From IMG/VR virus record IMGVR_UViG_3300019487_000021: 64,000 nucleotides of DNA; one strand, 5' to 3'. Both the position numbers and the translations under genes were made by a program. Position 1 is the stretch's first letter. Each line of letters begins with the position of its first letter. Source of the stretch: a virus. Taxonomy: Duplodnaviria > Heunggongvirae > Uroviricota > Caudoviricetes. This document shows positions 1,640-60,879 of this stretch, piece by piece. The notes below the pieces were generated by a model, which saw only the letters and a list, made by a program, of their open reading frames with translations, did no database searches and was not told where the DNA came from.

Positions 1640-1710
1640 GCCCCTGCCATCGGATGGAGCCGGGACTTCTAATCTCAGCATTGCAGGTTCGAATCCTGCC
1701 AGGGGTACCA
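1640..1710 (+). ncRNA. tRNA-like RNA with canonical acceptor stem, T-arm and encoded CCA but no foldable anticodon arm
   Basis: Acceptor GCCCCTG/CAGGGGT, T-arm GCAGG-TTCGAAT-CCTGC, discriminator A plus CCA. The 36-nt middle segment forms only the mini-hairpin CCAT-CGG-ATGG and carries a loop-like UUCUAAU. Confidence 0.5.
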
Positions 1711-1769: not shown

Positions 1770-2129
1770 ATGTCCAAAGCGTGGGGGTGGCATCTGATTC
1801 TTGACTGCGCACATTGCAACGACAATGTGAAGGACGCAGAAGCACTTCGTATGTTCGTCAAAGGTCTTGTTCTAGAAATCGACATGAAAGCGTATGGTGA
1901 ACCGGTTGTTGAACACTTTGCGACTCACGATCCAAACAAGGGCGGTTTTTCCTTAGTTCAACTGATTGAGACGAGTGCTATCACAGGCCACTTTGTCGAT
2001 CTGACAGGCGACGCATACCTTGATGTGTTCTCCTGCAAGGAGATTCCTGTCGAAAAGGCAGTTGCCTATGTCAACAAGTGGTGGAATCCTAAGTCGATTA
2101 AGGTCCATTTCTTGACGAGGCAAGCATGA
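1770..2129 (+). CDS. speD: S-adenosylmethionine decarboxylase proenzyme (small SpeH/SpeD class)
   Basis: GGFSLVQLIETSAITGHFVDLTGDAYLDVFSC matches the AdoMetDC self-processing region (ESH-SIHT-PE...DVFTC); RBS GGGAGA. Confidence 0.7.
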   Translation: MSKAWGWHLILDCAHCNDNVKDAEALRMFVKGLVLEIDMKAYGEPVVEHFATHDPNKGGFSLVQLIETSAITGHFVDLTGDAYLDVFSCKEIPVEKAVAYVNKWWNPKSIKVHFLTRQA

Positions 2130-2171
2130 AATTCATTTGTGTTACGAAGAACTCAAAAGGAAATATGGGTA

Positions 2172-2861
2172 ATGGCTCTAGCCTCTGTGACAATCACAGG
2201 AATTGATGAACGGACCGACTTGCAACAACTCCTGGAATTACAAGACAGGTATCCAAACATTGAATGGGGAGTGTTGTACAGTTTCAATCGACAAGGACAA
2301 CATCCACGCTACCCATCACAAGAGTGGATCAACAAATTACTTGTTCATATGAAGAACAAACGACTTCGTTGTGCCCTTCACATTTGTGGCTCAGCAGTTG
2401 GAGATTTCCTTGAAGGCAATGGCTACATTGTGATGCTTGCTGACAACTTCCCGCGAGTGCAGTTGAATTTCAATATAGGACGATTTGATATAAGCACGAT
2501 CCGGATAGGAATTCAACGCGCAAAAAATCGTCAAGTAATTACGCAGCACAATGAGAAGAACACGGAGCTGTGGAAAGATCTTACGATGTGCAACAATCAC
2601 GCTGTATTGTTTGACCAGTCAGGTGGCTATGGTATTGCACCACGAGAGTGGCCTAAACACTTGAAAGTGATCTCATGTGGTTATGCAGGTGGTCTTGGCC
2701 CCGACAATCTTGCTGAACAGTTGCCGATGATTGACAACGCTTCTGAAGGCAATCGGTATTGGGTTGATATGGAAACAAAAGTAAGGGACAATGACGACTA
2801 CCTTGACCTAAATAAGGTCAGGCAATGTCTACGACTCGTCGATGAGTTTGTAGGAAAGTAG
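2172..2861 (+). CDS. phosphoribosylanthranilate-isomerase (TrpF)-like TIM-barrel protein
   Basis: C-terminal LFDQSGGYGIAPREW...GYAGGLGPDNLAE resembles TrpF LLDS-GG-G-FDW...AGGL-P-NV; RBS AAGGAAA. Confidence 0.45.
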   Translation: MALASVTITGIDERTDLQQLLELQDRYPNIEWGVLYSFNRQGQHPRYPSQEWINKLLVHMKNKRLRCALHICGSAVGDFLEGNGYIVMLADNFPRVQLNFNIGRFDISTIRIGIQRAKNRQVITQHNEKNTELWKDLTMCNNHAVLFDQSGGYGIAPREWPKHLKVISCGYAGGLGPDNLAEQLPMIDNASEGNRYWVDMETKVRDNDDYLDLNKVRQCLRLVDEFVGK

Positions 2862-2873
2862 AGGAGCTTTGAA

Positions 2874-3073
2874 ATGAAATTCATTGTTGAAATCCACGCA
2901 GCAGAAGGTGGTGACGATAGCAAGTTGTTCGTCAAAGATCTCGCACAAGCATATCTCAAACTTTCAACTCGCAAGGGTTGAACAGCTCGCATTGTGCTAG
3001 ATGTGGCCGATGAGATCCGTGTTGAAGTGACGGGTCAAGACCTAGCACAATTGATGAATGAACCTGGCGGTCC
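2874..3073 (+). pseudogene. 5' fragment of a class-I release-factor paralogue (copy 1), with in-frame TGA at 2988-2990
   Basis: MKFIVEIHAAEGGDDSKLFVKDLAQAY aligns to the intact copy at 3618. Same GAGGAG RBS. Reading through the TGA continues as RF-like EVTGQDL...EPGG, then decays and is overlapped antisense by the HNH gene. Confidence 0.5.
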
Positions 3074-3547
3074 TTACTCACTGATCAGTTTCGATAGAGA
3101 TTCAACGAGCGTTCGCAGTTCTTGTAATGATGCATCGTGTTTGATCGCATTACAACGGTGGCAGCAAAGAACTACGTTGAAGGATGTATATCCTTCAGAA
3201 GGAATTAATCGATCGATGCTGGGTGAGCCGCGATGGTCTTTTCGTGTCCCATGCAAATTAAACGGATTGTGGCAATATACACAGCTGCTTTGTTGTTCAT
3301 GGAATTTTGATCGAATTTCTTCTCGTGTCAGTGTAAATGGGATGCTTCTTTTTGAAGAGCGTCGTGAAGCATCACCTACAGCAATAGTGAGCCATCGTTC
3401 CAGCGGTTCTTTGCCTTTGTAGCGACGCTGACTGTTTGAACTCTGACACCTTTTGCAGATGAAGTACAGTCCGTTGGCGTCGCGTCCTTTTGGGAAATCA
3501 GATGCGATTTTGGTGAGATTGCATTGTCTGCAAACTTTTGTAATCAT
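3074..3547 (-). CDS. HNH homing endonuclease
   Basis: CVYCHNPF...HGTRKDHRGSPSIDRLIPSEGYTSFNVVLCCHRCNAIKHD HNH motif; sits between two release-factor 5' copies. Confidence 0.8.
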   Translation of the reverse strand: MITKVCRQCNLTKIASDFPKGRDANGLYFICKRCQSSNSQRRYKGKEPLERWLTIAVGDASRRSSKRSIPFTLTREEIRSKFHEQQSSCVYCHNPFNLHGTRKDHRGSPSIDRLIPSEGYTSFNVVLCCHRCNAIKHDASLQELRTLVESLSKLISE

Positions 3548-3617
3548 GGTGAGTCTCCTCCTTGAGTGTTATTTATGGGGGACACCATTGAAGTTACTCC
3601 CACCGAGGAGAATGAAC

Positions 3618-4313
3618 ATGAAGAAAGTACACTTTGAAATTCACGCTGCCGCTGGCGGCGATGACGCGAAATTGTTTGTGGGCGAACTAGCAAAAGCATA
3701 CGAGCATATGTTCGTGCGTATGGCTTGGAAGTATCGCTGACTGCACACAGCACAATCGGCCGTGGGATACGCGTCGATTGTGTTTGAAGTGACGGGGAAT
3801 GTAGATATGTTGTTTAACGAATGCGGACTTGTCTCCTTGCAACGAGTTCCACCTACAGAGCGAAAAGGAAGAGTACACACATCGACCGTTACGGTTGCTG
3901 TGATTGATCTCGACAAGTATGTCAAACCAGACTACTCGTCAATCAGCACAAACGACCTGAAAGTTGAATGGTACTCCGGTAGTGGTGCCGGTGGGCAGCA
4001 TCGCAACAAGCATCAGAACAGTTGTCGCTTGACGCACCTTCCAAGTGGATGGACTGAGACGGCTCAGTGTCGCAGCCGAGATGCGTCATACAAGCAGGCA
4101 CTTGGACAGATGCAACGTGTGCTACAAAACAAAGGCAACTACCAAGTTGAACGTGCTCAATCCGTTGACCGGAAAGCACAAATGGGTTCTGGAATGCGTG
4201 GTGATAAGATTCGCACGTATCGTTTTCAAGACGATGTTGCAACTGACCACCGCACAGGAAGGAAAGTGAACTTGACAAAGGTAATGAACGGGAACTTCAA
4301 CCTGTTCTGGTAA
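3618..4313 (+). CDS. class-I peptide chain release factor lacking domain 1 (RF1/PrfH-like; PPT codon-recognition motif, GGQ); contains an in-frame TGA at 3738-3740
   Basis: AAGGDDAKLF...RVPPTERKGRVHTSTVTVAV...SGSGAGGQHRNKHQNSCRLTHLPSG aligns to RF1 domains 2-4. ORFs 3453-3740 and 3762-4313 are in the same frame, separated only by TGA, which sits at a normally coding position. RBS GAGGAG. Confidence 0.75.
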
Positions 4314-4317
4314 ACGT

Positions 4318-4923
4318 ATGTTGCAATACCCAAGTATACCAAGCTGGCGATACGTCGAACACGGACGACCATGCACAGCGTTTTACAAGTATGACGGATC
4401 GAATCTTCGATTCGAGTGGTCGTGGAAGCGTGGTTGGTACAAGTTCGGCACACGGACACAAATGATGGATGAAAACACACCGATTTATGGTGCGGCAATT
4501 CCTTTGTTCAAACAAACGATGGCTGAGTGGATCGCTCAGCGCTGTCAACATACTTTTGGTAAGAAGCTGGAACGCATCGTTGCGTTTGCAGAGTGGTTTG
4601 GACCATCAAGCTTTGCCGGTTGGCATGATGAGAATGAGAAGAAGCAACTCGTTCTCCTTGATGTGTCAATCTTCAAGAAAGGTGTTCTACCACCAGATCA
4701 GTTCTTGAAGTTCTTCGAGCGGGCAGATTTTTGCCCGAAAGTGATCTACAAGGGTGTGATGGATCAGCGGTTCATCGACAACGTTCGTGAGGGTCGGTAT
4801 CCAGTGTACGAAGGAGTTGTGTGCAAAGGAGTCGATTGGAACGCAAAAATCAAAACGGTCGAGTATCTCGACCGTTTGAAGAAGGAAAACACTGAAGCGT
4901 GGGAATTGATGAAGGACGAGTAA
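4318..4923 (+). CDS. small ATP-dependent RNA/DNA ligase (nucleotidyltransferase domain)
   Basis: Motif I FYKYDGSN (KxDG) and motif IV/V-like EGVVCKG. Confidence 0.55.
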   Translation: MLQYPSIPSWRYVEHGRPCTAFYKYDGSNLRFEWSWKRGWYKFGTRTQMMDENTPIYGAAIPLFKQTMAEWIAQRCQHTFGKKLERIVAFAEWFGPSSFAGWHDENEKKQLVLLDVSIFKKGVLPPDQFLKFFERADFCPKVIYKGVMDQRFIDNVREGRYPVYEGVVCKGVDWNAKIKTVEYLDRLKKENTEAWELMKDE

Positions 4924-5181
4924 TTACGCTTTGTCACCAATCTTTTCGAGATGGGCCTGAATCTTAGCAAGACCACGGCGAACACGAGAACGGTGCTTTT
5001 CACGCTCTTTCGGGTCCTTCAGCTTTTTAACAATCTGGAGGGCCCGTTTTGCTGCATCGAGCATTTTCTCGACATGCTCCTGACTTGCACCGGCCGGGAT
5101 CTCAACAGCTTCGTCAAGGATCGACAAATCGTCGTTTTTCTGGCCAAGTCCAGCAAGTTTTCTCATCTCGTTGATGTTCAT
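4924..5181 (-). CDS. hypothetical protein
   Basis: Minus-strand ORF with AGAGGA RBS; the overlapping plus ORF lacks signals. Confidence 0.5.
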   Translation of the reverse strand: MNINEMRKLAGLGQKNDDLSILDEAVEIPAGASQEHVEKMLDAAKRALQIVKKLKDPKEREKHRSRVRRGLAKIQAHLEKIGDKA

Positions 5182-5237
5182 TTCAGAATCCTCTAAGGTT
5201 GATGGGTATTTATGACCTATTGACTATTGGGACTAAA

Positions 5238-5630
5238 TACACAAAAGGAGGACATATGAAATACCTTCTGTTACTGTTGATTCTAGTTGTCACATCGAGC
5301 TTTGCCGGCGGCCCGTCAGAAGAATGTAGTATCTATGGCCGACTTGCTGGTGTAACAATGATGCACAAGAACAAAGCACGATGCCACGATTCTGAAGATG
5401 TGCAGAAATGTCAAGAACAATCTCGTCAGTATGTCACTTCATCCCTTCGAGAATTCCTGCAAGGAGAGCAACATTCAGAACAACTAATTACTAAGTTAGT
5501 TGAGTTTGTTGGAAGAGTGCACGACACGGAAGTTGATATGCTACCACGACACGCAGACGAGAAGTACTTTTTCGAGTGTTTTGATCGTTTTATTAAAGAA
5601 CGTGACCGAGAGCCAAACAAATCAAAGTGA
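5238..5630 (+). CDS. secreted hypothetical protein
   Basis: RBS AAAGGAGGAC; signal peptide MKYLLLLLILVVTSSFA. Confidence 0.5.
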   Translation, partial: YTKGGHMKYLLLLLILVVTSSFAGGPSEECSIYGRLAGVTMMHKNKARCHDSEDVQKCQEQSRQYVTSSLREFLQGEQHSEQLITKLVEFVGRVHDTEVDMLPRHADEKYFFECFDRFIKERDREPNKSK

Positions 5631-5690
5631 TCCTGGTAATTGGTCGGAATTTGGCAACAAACAACCCGGTAAGTTCTGTAGGAGATTTAC

Positions 5691-6182
5691 ATGAAAAGAT
5701 TACTCGTGCTATTGGTGTTTTCACCTACACTAGCTCTTGCTGATCATTGCCCAGTCCTAACAGGCACATACACGTGTCCAATGCAAGATCCCGACACAGG
5801 AGAAATCACGACGATTCTTGTGAAGATTACAACTGATGATCACAAATACACTGTCGTCCTTGGTGATGACCAGCCAGTTGAGTTTACGGACGGACATTCC
5901 GTTTCCGACATGGTGCCTGCTTCAGAAGGTGTGTACAGCTTGTATACTCGTTATTCCTGTACAGCTGACAAGAAGCTGGAAGTAAACTACCGCAATGCAT
6001 GGTACCACGATGGTCGGCCATACGAAGGTGAAGTTCCAACGTTTGAAGAGACGATGCAACAGTTTTATTCGCTTGACGAACAAGGCAATCTTGCTGAGTC
6101 CACGACACGGCAGCGCACTCAGCTTGGACGACAGGTCGGTCCACCGAAGTCAAAGTTTCGTATATGTGCTAAACAACAATAA
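5691..6182 (+). CDS. secreted hypothetical protein
   Basis: Signal peptide MKRLLVLLVFSPTLALA. Confidence 0.5.
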   Translation: MKRLLVLLVFSPTLALADHCPVLTGTYTCPMQDPDTGEITTILVKITTDDHKYTVVLGDDQPVEFTDGHSVSDMVPASEGVYSLYTRYSCTADKKLEVNYRNAWYHDGRPYEGEVPTFEETMQQFYSLDEQGNLAESTTRQRTQLGRQVGPPKSKFRICAKQQ

Positions 6183-6329
6183 CACTATATGATCAATGGT
6201 AGTCGGCGCTGGAGCGCGGCGGTGTCTTATAAACACTGGAGATCGGCTAGATTGGCTGGAACGGGAGGGATCGTAACCCTCGGCTACTACCAACGAATAT
6301 AGTGATAGAACCATATAATAAGGATATAA

Positions 6330-9637: not shown

Positions 9638-11370
9638 ATGTCAAAGCTCAACGCTCAGGGCAAGCGCCCAGTAAAGTCTACGTCTAACCATCGTTACGTA
9701 GCACCAGGAGTCCGTCACGTTCCTGTCGAAACTACTCTTGCTATTCCGGTAACGGAAACCGTCAGTGGAACAAAGAACCACTGCAGCACCTGTACGAACT
9801 TGCCGTGTCAACACTACTTGGTAAGGACACGTTCTACCGCACTAGCGACACACTTGTAAAGAATATGAAGACCAAGCTGAATGAAGCCGTTTCCATGGGT
9901 GCGTTTGACTTCGTTGCAAACGTTGCAATCCACGCTCGTGTGCAGATGGGCATCCGCTCACTGCCGATCATGTTGGTTGTCGAATTTGCAAAGATCCTCG
10001 CTGACTATCGTGCTCCGTACACGCAACAGCTGAACGACCTCCGTACACAACTCGCAAAGGCTCGCAGCGTAGCCAAAAAGCTTGAACTTGGTGACGAGAT
10101 TGCTCGTGTTCAGGCAATTGCGGAATCGTTCAACTACGAGAACATGCGCCGTTTGGTGTGTGATGTAATTCAGCGCGCCGACCAGATCACTGACCTCTAC
10201 GCTTATGCCCTTGAAGTGTTCGGTGGTAAGGGCAAGGTGCCGATGGCTGTGAAGCGTGGTGTAGCTGATGCTTTCAACAAGTTCAACGAATATCACTTCG
10301 GCAAGTACGACCGTGCTGGCTCGGTGAAATTCCGTGATGTACTGCGCATTGTTCATCCAACAGCTAAAAACGAGAAGCAAGGCGTGTTGTTTGAAAAGAT
10401 CATGAAGGAAACTCTAGCTACTCCGTACACTTGGGAAACCGAGCTTTCGAAGAATGGCCAGCTTCCGAAGGAAGAACGCCGTTCCGAGGCTCAAGTGTGG
10501 ACAGACTTGCTGGAGTCAGGCAAGCTTGGTTACATGGCTCTTCGTTCGAACGTTCGTAATATCATCAAGGCTGGTGTTGATGATGAAGTGATCGGTGTAT
10601 ACGTTGCAAGTGTGTTGGCTGATCCGAAGCGAGTTGTAGAAAGCAAGCAGTTCCCATTCAGCTTCATCCAGGCCCGCAATGCGATCCAGGAGGTTGGTGG
10701 TAACACGAAGATCCGTAACGCACTGGACAAGGCACTTGAGCTTTCATGCCGCAACATCCCAATGTTGGGCAAGAAGCTTGCTCTGATCATCGACAAGTCG
10801 GGATCGATGGTACAAGGCGTTTCAACGATGCCAGGCTTCACTCCGTTCGACCAGGCTGTAACACTAGCTGCAATGGTCGTAAAGGCACATGCAGATGCTG
10901 ATGACCTTGCCGTAATCGTGTTTGGTTCGGCCGCCGAAACACTAACAGACATCAACCCGAATGACAGCATCAACTCAATCGCGAACCGTATTCGCCAGTC
11001 AAAGGCTGGCGGTGGTACTCAATTCGATGTTGCGTTGCACGCGTTGAACCAGCTGGGATTCAAACCAGATGCCGTGCTTGTTATGACGGACGGTGAAATC
11101 AACAAGCTGTGGATCCAAGGCACGCGCCAGCTGGCTAGCATTCCATCGAGCACGTTGAAAGTTGTTGTCAACTTCCAGGCAGCAAACACAACTCCATTCC
11201 CAATCCGTGAAGGTTGGTATCCGATTGCAGGTTGGTCGGACAAGGTGTTCAAGTGGATTCCTGCGATCCACCAGAAAGTGACAGTTGTGGATGCGCTGTG
11301 TGCTCCATATGCGGGTGCAGAAGCAATGAAGGCTGCAATTCGCGCTGAAGCTGAAGAAACAGAAGAGTAA
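9638..11370 (+). CDS. rsr: Ro60/Rsr orthologue (TROVE plus vWA domains) with an apparent -1 frameshift near 9770-9800
   Basis: KFRDVLRIVHPTAKN matches the Ro60 motif SHKDLLRLSHLKPSS. vWA MIDAS LALIIDKSGSM...GGGTQ. RBS AAGGAG at ATG 9638 (frame 2); the body is in frame 1 from 9688 and has no ATG of its own. Confidence 0.7.
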
Positions 11371-17326: not shown

Positions 17327-17614
17327 ATGAGCACTTTCGCAGTCAAAGCTACTCGCATTCGTTCTATCGAGCCGATCGAAGGCGCCGACATGATTGAACT
17401 TGCTGTTGTCGGTGATTACCGTTCTGTGGTTCGGAAAGGTGATTACAAATCCGGTCAACTTGCTGTCTACATCCCTGAAGGGGCTGTACTACCTGAGTGG
17501 CTTATTGAGCGAATGGGCCTTACTGGCAAACTCGCAGGCAAACAAAAGAATCGTGTCAAGGCTGTTCGTCTTCGTGGTTGCTTGTCACAAGGTCTACTGT
17601 ATCCAGTCGATTGA
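17327..17614 (+). CDS. RNA-ligase N-terminal OB-like domain protein (Rnl5/DraRnl-family N-domain)
   Basis: 95-aa ORF whose stop overlaps the downstream ATG by one base (TGATG). Confidence 0.5.
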   Translation: MSTFAVKATRIRSIEPIEGADMIELAVVGDYRSVVRKGDYKSGQLAVYIPEGAVLPEWLIERMGLTGKLAGKQKNRVKAVRLRGCLSQGLLYPVD

Positions 17615-18492
17615 TGGCAGGACAAACGGCACATGACTATGAAGTTCCAACGGTTGCAACTCTCGACAATCGGGTTCTTGCAACGGAGGACAAAGACGTC
17701 GCCGAAGCTCTCGGCATTATCAAGTACGAGCCACCGATTCCTGCTTACATGAGCGGTGAAGTATATGCTGCTGGTCTCGATGTCACTGTCAAATATGACA
17801 TTGACAACTTCAAGGCTTTCCCGGACGTACTTGTCGATGGGGAACAAGTATCGTTTACGGAAAAACTTCATGGTACATTCTGCGGCATTGGCATTCTGCC
17901 GACTAGCCACTGGGATGACAAACACGTTCGTCGGAAGTTCGTTGTGTTCAGCAAAGGTCTTGGTGGTCAAGGGCATTGTTTCAAAGACACTGAACGTAAC
18001 TGGGGCAACGTATACTTTCGTGCGCTTACGGCTTCTGGCGTTTTCGAAAGACTCGAGACTCTAGTTGATCCTGCAGAAGAGTTCGACGATAAATTCTGGA
18101 ATACGCCAGTGTTTATTCTTGGCGAAGTCTACGGTAAGGGCATTCAGGATCTGGCCTACGGGATGAACGACATCAAGTTTCGAGTGTTTGACATCGCTTA
18201 CGGATATCGGAGTGAACTGAAATATGTCTGCCCGAAGTACATGCGTTTTGTTTGTGAGAATTTTGGCCTTGATTCTGTTCCAGTTCTTTACGAAGGCCCC
18301 TTCAGCAAGGAAGTCATGCTGCAGCATACAAAGGGGTGGGAGACTGTGTCAGGTGGGTCGGCGAATATTCGTGAAGGGATCGTTATTCGACCCACCCAGG
18401 AACGGTACGATCCAACTCTTGGTCGAGTGATCCTGAAAAGTGTAAGCGATGATTACTTGCTGCGCAAGGGCGAGATTACGGAGTACCAATGA
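17614..18492 (+). CDS. ATP-dependent RNA ligase nucleotidyltransferase domain (Rnl2/Rnl5-like)
   Basis: Motif I FTEKLHGT (KxHG). Confidence 0.6.
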   Translation: MAGQTAHDYEVPTVATLDNRVLATEDKDVAEALGIIKYEPPIPAYMSGEVYAAGLDVTVKYDIDNFKAFPDVLVDGEQVSFTEKLHGTFCGIGILPTSHWDDKHVRRKFVVFSKGLGGQGHCFKDTERNWGNVYFRALTASGVFERLETLVDPAEEFDDKFWNTPVFILGEVYGKGIQDLAYGMNDIKFRVFDIAYGYRSELKYVCPKYMRFVCENFGLDSVPVLYEGPFSKEVMLQHTKGWETVSGGSANIREGIVIRPTQERYDPTLGRVILKSVSDDYLLRKGEITEYQ

Positions 18493-34644: not shown

Positions 34645-36153
34645 ATGTTTGGAATGAATTCCATAGTGGGTAAGAAATACTTCAAAGACGCACCGAAGGA
34701 TAGTCTGTTAGTCACATCTCGTTTTTTCACAATTCAAGGCGAGGGAATTTACCGCGGAATGCCGAGCTACTTCGTACGTTTAGCGAAATGCAATCTCGCA
34801 TGTTCATTCTGTTTTGTTGGCAACACAGAAATAGCAATGTCAAATAAACCACGCAAGAAAATCAAAGATGTCGTCGTTGGAGATGTTGTTGTCGCATATG
34901 ACGAAACAACTGGAACATTCGAGCCAGGAACCGTGTCACGTTTGTACCAATCTCAAACAGACGAACTCGTGTATATTCGCACAGCAACGGATCGAATCTA
35001 CTGCACGCCTGAACATCCGTTTTACGTTCGTGGTAAGGGTTGGATTAAAGCAATTGATTTACAACCGAGCGATGTTCTTCTACAAGCAGAATTTATTCAT
35101 AACGGTGAAATGGTCCATACCGTTGAGCGAATAGTGAAAGGCTCGGCTGCTTGGGTGCAACTTGCAGGATCAAAAGATGCTGCCTGTACAGTTTATAATT
35201 TTGAAGTTGATAAGTACCACAGCTATGTAGCGAACGGAAAGGTTGTACACAACTGCGACACGTACTTCGACTCTGGTGAGTATCAAACATACGACCAGAT
35301 CTTTGCCGACTGTGACAAAGAGATCGAAGCCTTCTATGCAAGGCGTAACATGAAAGTTCCAGCGTGGGCAAAGCATTGTGACGGATATTGGGAACCTACA
35401 GGAATAGATAATGCAATTGGCACTCCTCCAGAGGAATGGGTCGCTGAATCGAAACGTAAGGTTGTCCTAGTAATCACAGGCGGTGAACCAACACTTCAAA
35501 CGAACCTCACCGAATTCCTCGAACGAGCAAATAAGATTTTCTTTCACACACAAATCGAGAGTAACGGAACAGATCCTTTAACGTTACCAGATGCAACCAC
35601 GCTTGTGTGTTCACCAAAGTGTCTCGAGAAGAAGCAAGGCATGCAGAAAATCCCCGTGACGGCCTACTTCAGCGGCAACGATGAGCGTGGAGAAGGGATG
35701 TCAGGCCGGCCCTCATACGTTACGTACCACGAAGAGCCACGATACGTTGCCGTTCGATATCTTGAACCAAAGAAAGAGATGCTTGAACGTGCTGACTGTT
35801 TGAAGTTTGTTATGTGTGCTCCTGACGATGACCAAAGCCAGTTCACGCCATACAGTGAAGTTCCTCAGTGGGCACATGACTGGGCTGCAAACACTGGCAA
35901 GCCTGTGTTCGTATCGCCGATGAACATCTACCTGCAAGAGCCACAAAAGGCTAAGAACCTTCGTGCGCAAAAGCAGAGTGGTGAAATCACAATCGAAGAA
36001 CGGTCGACGGTCGACGAAGTCATTTCGTGGTGGGAAAACGATCTCCTTGATATGAAAAAGAATCACCGCAATCATGAATACGCAGCTGAATACTGCATGA
36101 GGCATGGATTTATCTTTCAAGTTCAACTACATTTGTTTGCGAGTCTTGCCTAA
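34645..36153 (+). CDS. queE: 7-carboxy-7-deazaguanine synthase QueE (radical SAM) interrupted by a mini-intein
   Basis: FTIQGEG, CNLACSF[intein]CDTYF, VLVITGGEPTL. Splicing would restore CNLACSFC (CxxxCxxC). Confidence 0.8.
   Translation: MFGMNSIVGKKYFKDAPKDSLLVTSRFFTIQGEGIYRGMPSYFVRLAKCNLACSFCFVGNTEIAMSNKPRKKIKDVVVGDVVVAYDETTGTFEPGTVSRLYQSQTDELVYIRTATDRIYCTPEHPFYVRGKGWIKAIDLQPSDVLLQAEFIHNGEMVHTVERIVKGSAAWVQLAGSKDAACTVYNFEVDKYHSYVANGKVVHNCDTYFDSGEYQTYDQIFADCDKEIEAFYARRNMKVPAWAKHCDGYWEPTGIDNAIGTPPEEWVAESKRKVVLVITGGEPTLQTNLTEFLERANKIFFHTQIESNGTDPLTLPDATTLVCSPKCLEKKQGMQKIPVTAYFSGNDERGEGMSGRPSYVTYHEEPRYVAVRYLEPKKEMLERADCLKFVMCAPDDDQSQFTPYSEVPQWAHDWAANTGKPVFVSPMNIYLQEPQKAKNLRAQKQSGEITIEERSTVDEVISWWENDLLDMKKNHRNHEYAAEYCMRHGFIFQVQLHLFASLA
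34810..35253 (+). mobile_element. mini-intein (148 aa, no endonuclease domain) in QueE
   Basis: Begins with Cys, block B TPEHPF, ends VVHN followed by a +1 Cys. Confidence 0.75.
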
Positions 36154-46111: not shown

Positions 46112-46372
46112 ATGAAATTGTTCAAAGTTTCCAAAGATGTTCCGGGTCGTTTGATCAATTCACAAGACAAAACGGAAAGGCCGTTTCTTACCCGACGCGA
46201 GTTCATCTTTGGACGCGAGGATATTGCCCTCGATCCTGTGACTGTGTACAATCAATCTCGTACGGTGATTCATGAGTACGGGTTTGTTTACGGCACTCCT
46301 GAACAACGTGAAAAGTATGTGCTGATCATTCCAGCACAGTTCGTTGAGATGATCCTTCCCGAGGACGACTGA
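46112..46372 (+). CDS. hypothetical protein
   Basis: ORF, ATGA overlap with cca. Confidence 0.4.
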
Positions 46373-47412
46373 TGAAAGTTTATCAAGTTGGTGGTTGCGT
46401 CCGAGACCGATTGCTCGGCCGAACACCCAAAGACATCGACTACGTTGTGGTCGGCTCCACACCTGAAGAAATGCTCGCATTGGGGTTTCAACAGGTCGGT
46501 GCATCATTCCCAGTCTTTCTAAAAGATGGCAGTGAATACGCACTAGCTCGTACCGAACGCAAAACTGGTGTTGGTTACACTGGTTTCACAACAAGTCACG
46601 ATCCTTCCGTTACGTTGGAGGAAGACCTCCGCCGTCGCGACTTGACAATTAACTCCATGGCGTGGGACGAAGAGACGAACGCGTTGATTGATCCGTTCTT
46701 GGGCCAAGTAGACCTAGAGATGAAGGTGCTGCGTCATACGAGCAAAGCGTTTGCCGAAGATCCAGTTCGCGTGTTGCGTACAGCACGATTTGCTGCACGA
46801 TACAATTTCCAAATCTTTGCAGACACGCAGGAAATGATGGCTGCAGTTGCGCATGAACTCGATTACGTTCCTCAAGAACGGATTTGGGCTGAAATTGAAA
46901 AGGGTCTAATGGAGCGTTATCCGGACAATATGTTCCTGTGGCTCAAACACTGTAAGGTGTTCGATAAGTGTGGCGCACTTAAGCCATATGCTTCATTCGA
47001 TTGCGTACGACTAGCAAATGCTGTTGATGCTGATCTCGTTACACGATTCGTATTCGTTTCTGTTAATTTTACCGCGGACGATTACGCGATTTGTCGTGTG
47101 CCGACTGAACCGGCGGAAGTCGCACAAATGTTCCACAGCAACTTCAGTAGCTTTGAAAAGTACTTGTCGTTCAACACATCAAAGTGTTTGGATCTGTTGT
47201 ACAAGATGCGTGCATTCAGTGGCGGCAGCAAGACGTTTCTCAAGTGTATGGAAGTTTTGAGTCATTATCCGGAGCTTGAGATGCAACGCTCAATGCTTCT
47301 TGCAGATTACAACAACGCAAAGAACATTGACACAGCTGCAATCGCCGCGAAACACACTAGCGGTACTCAGATCAAGGAAGCGATCTATTTTGCACGATTG
47401 GCTGAACTTTAG
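46372..47412 (+). CDS. cca: tRNA nucleotidyltransferase (CCA-adding enzyme, head domain)
   Basis: [21 protein letters not shown] (GGxVRD...DxD) plus downstream RRDLTIN. Confidence 0.75.
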
Positions 47413-54804: not shown

Positions 54805-54879
54805 GCTTCGTAAACTTTGACGGTGAAGCCCACTCCTGTAAAGTGGCGGAAGTAGGTTCGAATCCTACACGGAGCTCCA
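54805..54879 (+). tRNA. tRNA-Thr (anticodon UGU; C33)
   Basis: GCTTCGT/ACGGAGC, CCACT-CCTGTAA-AGTGG, GTAGG-TTCGAAT-CCTAC, T plus CCA. Confidence 0.6.
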
Positions 54880-59769: not shown

Positions 59770-60879
59770 ATGAACATACGTCAAAAACAGCTGTGGGACA
59801 ACCTGTTAGCCCTAACGAAGGCTAACGAGGTGTTCTACCATCAGGAATTCACCCTTGATGGCAAACGGTATTGGATTTTCAACTATCGCTTGGCTTCCTA
59901 TACCGACTTCCTTCAACCCGACGCGTTGGAGTGTCGTGGGCATATGTTCGAAGTTGATCAAAATGATCAACCGGTCCGCCTGGCGGCCTGGCCATGTGAA
60001 AAGTTCTTCAACTTGAACGAAAATCCTTTGACGATTGGCCTTGATCTTACAAAGGTTGTTCGCATCGAGGACAAAGTTGATGGATCGTTGATGTCTACGT
60101 ACATCCACGATGGTGTGCTTCGTCTCAAGTCGCGCGGTTCGTTGTTCTCCGACCAGGCGCTTGCAGCAATGCGCTTTTTGGAAACTGATCGACTTTTGTG
60201 GGAAATGTTGTATAATATCACCGACAAAGGCTATACGGTTAACCTCGAGTGGTGTGCACCCGAACATCGGATTGTAATTGGTTATCCACAAGCTCACTTA
60301 CGTGTGTTGAATGTTCGTTCGACAGCAGATGGCACGTATCAAGATCTGTCACAAGTACCACAGATGAAGAATTACTGGGTACCTATACATGATGTTGTTG
60401 ATCCTGTTGTATTTGTTGCTTCGATCAAGGATATGACTGGTGTCGAGGGTTATGTTGTAACTCTTGAGGGCGGTCTGCGCGTAAAAATCAAGTGCGAATG
60501 GTACATGTCTCTTCATCACACAAAGGATTCAATCAACAATCCACGTCGATTGTTTGAGTCAATCTTAGATGAAGCGATCGACGACCTACGCGCGATGTTC
60601 TACGACGACGTTGTTGCAATGCAAATGATCGACGAGATGGAAAAGAAAGTCGATCAGGTGTATAATGGTATGGTCAACATGGTCGAAGGCTACTACGCTG
60701 AGAACAAGCACTTGTCTCGCAAAGACTATGCTATCAAGGCGCAAACGCATTTCAAGGACACGTTGTATTTTGGACTTGCAATGGGAAAGTACATAGGCCG
60801 CGCTTTCTCGTATAAAACATTCCTTAAATCCAAATGGCGTGATCTGGGTTTGAAGGACACCTCTCTGGAGGAATTATAA
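59770..60879 (+). CDS. T4 Rnl1-like ATP-dependent RNA ligase (tRNA-repair type)
   Basis: Motif I RIEDKVDGSL (KxDGS); 369 aa like T4 Rnl1. Confidence 0.6.
   Translation: MNIRQKQLWDNLLALTKANEVFYHQEFTLDGKRYWIFNYRLASYTDFLQPDALECRGHMFEVDQNDQPVRLAAWPCEKFFNLNENPLTIGLDLTKVVRIEDKVDGSLMSTYIHDGVLRLKSRGSLFSDQALAAMRFLETDRLLWEMLYNITDKGYTVNLEWCAPEHRIVIGYPQAHLRVLNVRSTADGTYQDLSQVPQMKNYWVPIHDVVDPVVFVASIKDMTGVEGYVVTLEGGLRVKIKCEWYMSLHHTKDSINNPRRLFESILDEAIDDLRAMFYDDVVAMQMIDEMEKKVDQVYNGMVNMVEGYYAENKHLSRKDYAIKAQTHFKDTLYFGLAMGKYIGRAFSYKTFLKSKWRDLGLKDTSLEEL

Follow-up and report, generated by a model that had tools for sequence, protein, structure and literature searches.

How can a virus make a release factor whose own gene is interrupted by a stop codon? 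The question is raised by IMGVR_UViG_3300019487_000021, an IMG/VR record of a virus of the class Caudoviricetes, from which a stretch of 64,000 nucleotides (hereafter the window) was analysed. At 3618-4313 the window carries a gene for a release factor (RF) of the RF1 type, and the open reading frame (ORF) of this gene is broken by an in-frame TGA at 3738-3740. We consider it likely, with a probability of roughly 0.7, that programmed UGA readthrough, probably by tRNA-Trp, gates synthesis of this phage RF1. Judged by its relatives, the window seems to be a piece of a large phage genome of about 350 kb: those in IMG/VR measure 350-520 kb, and a contig of 351,809 nt carries the entry P0001. The elements of the gene are as follows.

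3605-3610, + strand: GAGGAG ribosome-binding site of the complete gene, read from the sequence
3618-4313, + strand: domain-1-less RF1-type release factor gene, 231 codons plus stop, with one in-frame TGA
3726-3728, + strand: TGG codon for the conserved Trp (Trp37)
3738-3740, + strand: in-frame TGA (codon 41), recoding site of type B (see below), context CGC TGA C
3849-3857, + strand: PPT tripeptide, the PxT 'anticodon' of RF1-type factors, aligned to the PxT of RF1
3990-3998, + strand: GGQ peptidyl-tRNA hydrolysis motif, residues 125-127, aligned to the GGQ of RF1 structures
4311-4313, + strand: TAA, the true terminator

From the ATG at 3618, 40 codons lead to the TGA, and the frame is unchanged from there up to the TAA at 4311-4313. 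Because the ORF is interrupted in frame, a full-length protein would require UGA to be decoded as sense. The initial annotation of the window had described the 231-residue read-through frame, the UGA-C context of the stop and a GAGGAG element before both this gene and an RF-like stretch starting at 2874, all of which can be read directly from the sequence.

In the 231-residue read-through product, Pfam recognises the PCRF (2.6e-21) and RF-1 (2.8e-17) domains. The top NCBIfam match is RF1 (NF001859), with 183.6 bits against a cut-off of 400, and it spans model positions 104-332 of 347; since only these positions match, domain 1 is absent and the score remains far under the equivalog cut-off. 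The gene therefore does not show the four-domain architecture of RF1, with its N-terminal domain 1 and an above-cut-off score. The RF2, PrfH and ArfB models score far lower than RF1 on the same product. Solved RF1 chains in the PDB align to it with E values of about 1e-34, unbroken across the TGA and covering both PxT and GGQ. The codon-recognition stretch, LQRVPPTERKGRVHTST, fits the RF1 pattern ..QRVPxTE..GR.HTS.., and VPPTE is found also in full-length RF1 genes of Patescibacteria genomes, presumably the housekeeping RF1. By its PPT, its GGQ and the flanking recognition residues, the product looks like an RF1-type factor. The two motifs and the lack of domain 1 had been noticed before any database search, and of the label 'RF1/PrfH-like' given at that stage the first half was borne out and the second was not. 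The product resembles PrfH and ArfB in being a shortened GGQ protein without the N-terminal domain, and an RNA-ligase-like gene is its neighbour at 4318-4923; unlike them, it retains the PxT domain and scores only 36.6 bits against a cut-off of 166.65 for PrfH (TIGR03072) and 15.6 against 100 for ArfB. A link of the PrfH/RtcB kind was considered for this neighbour and rejected, the ORF being RNA-ligase-like according to PHROG and not RtcB, and the synteny being limited to the loci L002 and L003.

The interruption recurs far beyond the window. In what we call type A, TGA stands at the codon of the Trp that is conserved in RF1. This column is TGA in all 80 IMG/VR loci retrieved with the protein and in all 114 unique complete genes obtained by pooling IMG/VR, metagenome and GTDB sequences. 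The other Trp codons of these 114 genes are TGG without exception (245/245), and the true terminator is TAA in 107 of them. The family spans AT-rich to GC-rich sequences with protein identities of about 45-70%, and the codons beside the TGA vary synonymously (e.g., GGC, GGT and GGA before it). Over the 33 codons upstream of the TGA, the median pairwise ratio of nonsynonymous to synonymous substitution rates (dN/dS) is 0.19, compared with 1.1-1.4 in the two shifted frames. These comparisons indicate that both sides of the TGA are under purifying selection, and RF1 homology extends over both sides as well, as expected of a stop codon that is read through. In an AlphaFold2 model of the read-through product of a relative, P0009 (predicted local distance difference test score 88.8), a strand (residues 2-9) and a helix (14-34) lie upstream of Trp36, which suggests that the part encoded before the stop is integral to domain 2. 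The model matches ribosome-bound RF1 with template modelling (TM) scores of 0.87-0.90 in Foldseek, the values being about 0.55 for full-length RF1 chains when normalised by target length.

Judging from these sequences, the family consists of RF1-type factors without domain 1, carried by large phages (often within tRNA arrays) and by a few bacterial genomes, and the best explanation would be that its ORF is interrupted deliberately near codon 36-41. The idea of an RF reminiscent of prfB that can be made only by UGA readthrough, put forward in the initial annotation, thus gains strong comparative support from a TGA that is invariant in 114 of 114 homologues, from constraint on both sides of it and from the +1 cassettes of sister lineages described below. 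Type A copies with the TGA are present in Pararhizobium sp. BT-229, Thalassospira xianhensis MCCC 1A02616 and Rhodovibrio sodomensis DSM 9895. The flanks of the Pararhizobium and Thalassospira copies contain only uninformative hypothetical proteins. About 430 nt downstream of the interrupted Pararhizobium gene (L176), a 106-aa ORF of ArfB-like size with an RF-1 domain is located at 4119-4439. A megablast search of window positions 2000-6000 against GenBank phages returned nothing, and tblastn against the same phages gave matches below 37% identity, mostly to unannotated records and to a few annotated as prfA or prfB; as all of them remain below 37%, no cultured GenBank phage appears to carry the family.

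The window gene belongs to a second layout, type B, in which the conserved Trp is encoded by TGG and TGA follows four codons later; the three remaining Trp codons of the gene are TGG. Type B occurs in four lineages, namely the complete gene of the window, L098 (..NWKCG*LEE..), L195-197 (..SWKST*INQ..) and L198-199 (..GWKYI*LIK..); a search of the representative library with the 40-residue N-terminal ORF recovered type B relatives. All three relatives continue in frame through PPTE, and the two whose contigs reach far enough (L195-197 and L198-199) continue through GGQ. The initial annotation had placed the TGA of the upstream RF-like stretch at 2988-2990, in the same alignment column as that of the complete gene; it is in fact at 2979-2981, in the Trp column, while the TGA of the complete gene lies four codons downstream of a retained TGG. 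RF1 aligns across the latter column as a sense position, and the residue there is I, V or L, not Trp. An independent contig from another sample (L095), 99.993% identical over 14.3 kb, has the identical interruption, and four contigs in total encode an identical downstream product. Since L095 carries the same sequence, the TGA at 3738-3740 is not a base-call error, an alternative that had been left open.

Other members of the family are interrupted differently. In L119 and L126, the Trp is replaced by Phe and a distal TGA occurs about 37 codons further on (..AYS*LAEEAGGHR..). The distant relative L158, on a 482-kb contig, has two in-frame TGAs at yet other positions. In seven loci representing about five distinct sequences (L134, L144/145, L148/150, L153, and L154), a cassette of the form CGGAGG-(TGC/TGT/TCT)-CTT is followed at the Trp position by TGA, TAG or TAA, and the remainder of the gene, including VPPTE and GGQ, is in the +1 frame; two of these loci use TAG. 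In the prfB motif, a Shine-Dalgarno (SD)-like element is located three nucleotides before CTT-T-stop (PMC12421855), and the identical geometry suggests that these loci carry a prfB-like +1 cassette at the same site. A further locus, L178 from a metagenome-assembled genome of Hahella, carries CTT-TAG-C five codons beyond a TGG Trp codon, and its reading frame goes on in +1. Scanning IMG/VR with the frameshift-type protein revealed no further members of that lineage. Uninterrupted relatives also exist (L084/L110, L103, L116, L117, L140, L143, L149, L151, and L156). The recurrence of different recoding devices at one spot points to selection for stop-dependent expression and argues against decay. 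With some reserve, we favour the broader view that recoding at one site is the rule in phage and mobile-element homologues of RF1, mostly as UGA readthrough at the Trp codon or four codons after it, with sister lineages using +1 frameshifting at CTT-UAG, CTT-UAA or CTT-UGA. For the window site itself, a +1 or -1 frameshift was considered and rejected, the RF1 homology staying in frame 0; the sequence there, AAG TAT CGC TGA CTG, does not contain the prfB-type signal, and the +1 frame is without RF homology.

The window as a whole uses TGA as an ordinary stop. Under code 11, its 118 greedy ORFs make it 89% coding, and they end in TAA (53), TGA (46) or TAG (19), with several ATGA overlaps, TGA accounting for about 39%. 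The many in-frame TGAs and the avoidance of TGA as terminator that characterise code-4 phages were not observed. A screen of the window for genes split by TGA yielded one candidate, an adjacent same-frame gene pair, and is a weak screen that missed the RF gene itself, the map of greedy ORFs being the more informative of the two.

What could decode the UGA is suggested by the tRNA genes. In bacteria, UGA has its natural near-cognate reader in tRNA-Trp. The window and 174 related loci (1.1 Mb of flanks) together contain 577 tRNA genes. Of these, 14 encode tRNA-Trp(CCA), and several of the 14 belong to arrays next to the RF gene; none of the 577 has the anticodon UCA that the initial annotation had proposed to look for. 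Six phage tRNA-Trp(CCA) genes near the RF gene were inspected (L012, L027, L034, L040, L046, and L059), with positions assigned by eye. Five of them have a U11-A24 Watson-Crick pair, which we take to be the state of the Hirsh UGA suppressor, and in that of L046 a 27:43 mismatch, likewise noted by eye, leaves an anticodon stem of 4 bp. An anticodon stem of 4 bp is reported to raise UGA readthrough (2026 NAR paper).

The immediate context of the recoded TGA is biased: in 69 diverse contexts, the next base is A in 60, C in 5, G in 4 and T in none. T follows 10 of the 26 genuine TGA terminators of the window but 0 of the 69 recoded codons (p = 5e-7), a difference in which constraint on the amino acid of the next codon is a confounding factor. 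According to PMC5289835, +4U lowers termination read-through in E. coli and yeast. No conserved base pairs were found downstream of the TGA by RNAalifold in 22 diverse contexts, nor was a selenocysteine insertion sequence (SECIS) hairpin 3' of the UGA; the mean fold z-score was -1.2.

We propose that the decoder is most likely tRNA-Trp(CCA), acting as a near-cognate and competing with RF2; in type A genes, Trp inserted at the UGA would restore the conserved Trp of RF1. An RF1-type product, specific for UAA and UAG, could not terminate at its own UGA. Since the product would not act on this codon, its output would be set by RF2 activity and the supply of tRNA-Trp, and the UGA, instead of closing an autoregulatory loop, would sense the infected cell's capacity for termination or act as a throttle. 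As the initial annotation had proposed, it may serve as a sensor or timer of host UGA termination. In the frameshift lineages with TAG or TAA, by comparison, the product could repress itself as RF2 does, the RF1-cognate TAG in the cassettes making true RF1-type autoregulation possible.

The type B gene of the window is preceded by a second RF-like stretch, and tblastn detected only these two in the 64 kb. The initial annotation took the upstream stretch for a full paralogue; it is indeed RF-like and amounts to a remnant of 66-70 codons. The following elements are found upstream of and across the 5' part of the complete gene.

2861-2866, + strand: GAGGAG ribosome-binding site of the displaced native 5' segment, 7 nt before ATG 2874
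2874 to ~3083, + strand: native type A 5' remnant of an RF1-like gene, first 66-70 codons, with a Pfam PCRF match
2979-2981, + strand: TGA at the conserved RF1 Trp codon (type A site) of the remnant, ..RKG*T..
3074-3547, - strand: HNH/endonuclease VII-like gene, 157 aa (PHROG endonuclease VII, E = 7e-28)
3084-3839, no strand assigned: inserted cassette with the HNH gene and a foreign type B 5' segment, boundaries approximate and inferred

Homology of the remnant peptide, MKFIVEIHAAEGGDD...NEPGGPYSL, ends after about codon 70 (2874-3071 according to tblastn), and the remnant adjoins the minus-strand HNH gene. The latter matches several HNH PHROGs and, weakly, Pfam HNH_5; it is missing from all related loci except the identical contig L095, no homologues of it were found in IMG/VR, and in the relatives L001-L003 the RF gene is without the cassette interruption. 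The arrangement, an endonuclease ORF in or beside a conserved gene and missing from close relatives, is that of a homing cassette. The remnant is 68% identical to the N-terminus of L001, the closest relative with an intact gene; for the complete gene, the figures are about 44% in the N-terminal and 70% in the C-terminal part, with the right-hand junction between cassette and native sequence near codons 71-74 (approximate). These identities suggest a cassette that brought a donor 5' segment with it, consistent with co-conversion. On the simplest reading, the complete gene would be a chimera of a type B 5' part and the native 3' part, and the HNH gene together with the type B 5' segment would have entered a type A gene near codon 70, stranding the native 5' part. 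The product of 3074-3547 is a putative homing endonuclease, its homing activity being presumed from this arrangement.

A comparable architecture is seen in L195-197, where an L016-like type A remnant ending in ..QRVPP is followed by an ORF of 347 aa and then by a type B gene; this ORF is homologous to one upstream of the type B gene of L098. The second arrangement of remnant, inserted ORF and type B gene occupies 1685-3700 in L195-L197 and 77-1279 in L098. The ORF common to L098 and L195, 302-347 aa long and ending in ..YEIKSSYT..VILVL.G..I.Q, obtained no usable annotation from Pfam or PHROG and may be an undescribed homing endonuclease. The cassette of the window resembles the free-standing homing endonucleases of large phages, known for intronless homing with co-conversion, in that an HNH gene sits in a highly conserved stretch of a conserved gene, brings donor flanks along and is absent from close relatives, with a parallel in L195. 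It differs from them in the partial duplication, the native 5' remnant being kept and the foreign 5' segment being fused in frame.

Several other explanations of the in-frame TGA have to be weighed. UGA could have been switched to Trp, perhaps late in infection, by a phage tRNA(UCA) encoded elsewhere in the genome of about 350 kb, RF1 being a late gene of a code-change module. Phage code-change modules with RF1 have been described (Borges et al. preprint), the RF gene of the family lies within tRNA arrays, and RF1, which does not read UGA, would be compatible with such a switch; the loci examined are part of each genome, and L158 has two in-frame TGAs. Against this, TGA ends about 39% of the window genes, ATGA overlaps included, no other TGA-split gene emerged from the (weak) coding-potential screen, the other Trp codons of the family are TGG in all 245 cases, and UCA is absent from the 577 tRNA genes, even from arrays of 22-24 tRNAs that include Trp(CCA). 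Moreover, the RF1 gene of the Jade phages, which do recode TGA, is written in the standard code. A code switch is therefore unlikely, and the partial stop-codon reassignment envisaged in the initial annotation finds no support in the same data. The family may also read through its TGA while the window copy itself is dead or dying, a chimera left by the HNH insertion, with an inherited TGA and a scar. The gene deviates at nearly invariant positions, having GLVS where GGHR, GVHR or GIHR stands in 132 of 135 unique sequences, and a single sequence admits no selection test. Its ORF is nevertheless otherwise undamaged through all 231 codons and retains PPT, GGQ and every C-terminal residue that is invariant in the family; four contigs encode the identical product, and L195-197 preserve the same order of remnant, endonuclease and type B gene in intact form. 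HR is also missing (GTSV) from L096, which is the nearest full-length relative and the sole other deviating one, and the deviation may thus be native to a sub-lineage. We regard loss of function of the window copy as improbable. Still less likely is expression in two pieces, in which UGA would terminate and a peptide of 35-40 residues and a separately started C-terminal protein would assemble or act alone. Gene callers do annotate downstream ORFs of 168-191 aa, but the starts they choose (ATG, GTG or TTG) change in kind and place from one relative to the next, and neither a start codon nor a ribosome-binding site is conserved behind the TGA. In addition, the strand and helix encoded before the stop are integral to domain 2 in the model, and the frameshift-type relatives join both parts as one chain. 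In-frame stops usually mark pseudogenes, and selenocysteine is an amino acid that UGA can specify; yet the TGA is invariant in 114 unique genes at about 45-70% protein identity, upstream dN/dS is 0.19, the same sequence was obtained in an independent assembly, no conserved hairpin follows the UGA, and the column is Trp in RF1. An ordinary pseudogene, as the initial annotation had allowed for, a sequencing error or a selenocysteine codon is accordingly very hard to credit.

Readthrough gating thus remains the preferred explanation, and the following points weigh against it. The 64 kb cover only part of a genome of roughly 350 kb, leaving room for a suppressor tRNA elsewhere. Output may be very low, since the search for a stimulatory RNA structure was negative. 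The type B TGA occupies a position that is I, V or L in RF1, where insertion of Trp is not obviously neutral. GLVS in place of the near-invariant GGHR could mean that the chimeric window copy is impaired; in view of GTSV in L096, it may be either a junction scar or a trait of the sub-lineage. The RF1-type product has no obvious feedback onto UGA, which makes the adaptive logic conjectural. Finally, the support for readthrough is comparative, and we infer its level, the residue inserted and its purpose.

Release-factor tuning by recoding is known only for RF2 (prfB). There, too, a class I RF gene is interrupted early by a stop codon, usually UGA, and output follows the slow reading of this stop; the sister lineages L134, L144, L148, L153, and L154 repeat the signal in full, with the SD-like GGAGG, 3 nt, CTT-T and the stop. 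Unlike prfB, the window gene and most of the family involve no change of frame, SD-like element or CTT, the site is in domain 2 at a Trp codon rather than in domain 1 at codon 26, and the RF1-type product does not read UGA, so that the loop is not closed. In phage Qbeta, tRNA-Trp now and then reads a leaky UGA, extending the coat protein to the A1 protein. Our case is similar in that UGA readthrough by tRNA-Trp would give a needed longer product, and different in that the coat protein of Qbeta is functional before readthrough and gains a C-terminal extension by it; here the stop is inside an essential domain, and only the read-through product would be functional. The Jade phages with recoded TGA carry an RF1 gene written in the standard code (Borges et al. 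preprint). As in our family, this phage RF1 gene is next to tRNA genes, and it is proposed to bias termination towards UAA and UAG; in contrast, in-frame TGA occurs in many late genes of the Jade phages together with a suppressor tRNA, whereas in the window TGA is a normal terminator and is found in frame in the RF gene only.

An early in-frame UGA with same-frame continuation was not found in RF2 genes, and an RF1/UAG counterpart was unknown, according to the 2016 review by Atkins et al. (PMC5009743), which thus knows of no bacterial release-factor gene of the readthrough type. The only viral case in that review is a giant-virus release-factor gene (PMC5009743). The eRF1 gene of Mimiviridae is likewise a virus release-factor gene that needs stop-codon recoding, by readthrough and frameshifting (PMC5009743); compared here by description only, it differs in being of the eukaryotic type and from a virus of amoebae, and neither its protein family nor its signals are related to ours. 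In a 2025 survey that covered over 12,000 genomes of bacteria, prfA showed no evidence of programmed frameshifting, and TAG was absent from all prfB motifs (PMC12421855). Our literature search found no description of this RF1 family; most papers in subscription journals were outside the search, and an earlier description is possible.

If correct, the proposed gating would provide the first readthrough-gated bacterial-type release factor, the frameshift lineages would provide the first RF1-type gene that regulates itself by a frameshift at stop codons which its product recognises, and large phages would be seen to monitor the infected cell's capacity for termination and to adjust it. If the mechanism works as we infer, the amount of this viral RF1 that is made would reflect how RF2 and tRNA-Trp compete, evolution would have repeatedly exchanged readthrough and +1 frameshifting at one codon, and the family would offer natural contexts for leaky UGA decoding without RNA structure. 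The three cultured Alphaproteobacteria that carry the gene open the question to experiment.

In protein databases, entries of 222-227 aa that show W at the site are code-4 translations of short contigs, the DNA of which has TGA. For close relatives on long contigs, the gene callers give shortened proteins of 168-191 aa, and the start codons they assign are inconsistent. Code-4 translation affects P0009, P0017, P0056, and many other entries, and is a systematic annotation artefact. A protein-database search with the N-terminal 81 residues of the complete gene returned no candidates. Since gene callers either truncate these genes or switch to code 4, databases already hold many mis-translated entries.

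Several further RNA genes were noted near the RF genes. At 1640-1707 (+ strand) of the window, just upstream of speD, a tRNA-like element stays below the Rfam gathering threshold (25.2 against 29 bits) and was missed by ARAGORN; it has a reduced D-arm and the anticodon UCU (Arg) and is no suppressor. A tRNA-Arg(UCU) is also located upstream of the RF gene in L001-L003 and L018. Another weak tRNA, at 54805-54876 (+ strand; 35 bits in Rfam, missed by ARAGORN), has the anticodon UGU and C33 in place of U, and is no suppressor either. Unusually long (89-95 nt) 'tRNA-Ile (UAU)' genes, called by ARAGORN and unrecognised by Rfam, recur in the tRNA sets of these phages, at 6198-6292 (+ strand) of the window and in L002, L013, L040, L044, and L046. 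In L050, a transfer-messenger RNA gene (4660-5173) was called that starts within the last few bases of the RF1-like gene. A tRNA with the amber suppressor anticodon CUA is nearby in L050 (8139-8215) and L079 (8040-8114).

The window is rich in RNA and translation functions in general, with 12 tRNA or tRNA-like genes and speD. An RNA-repair/translation toolkit at 4318-4923, 17578-18492, 59770-60879, 46372-47412, and 9805-11370 comprises three RNA-ligase-like genes (one T4 Rnl1-like), an enzyme of the CCA-adding/poly(A) polymerase family and a Ro protein (TROVE plus VWA). At 34645-36153 (+ strand), a QueE-like radical SAM protein contains a Hint/intein insertion, with Pfam Intein_splicing and PT-HINT matches at residues ~56-203 and Radical_SAM at 268-311.

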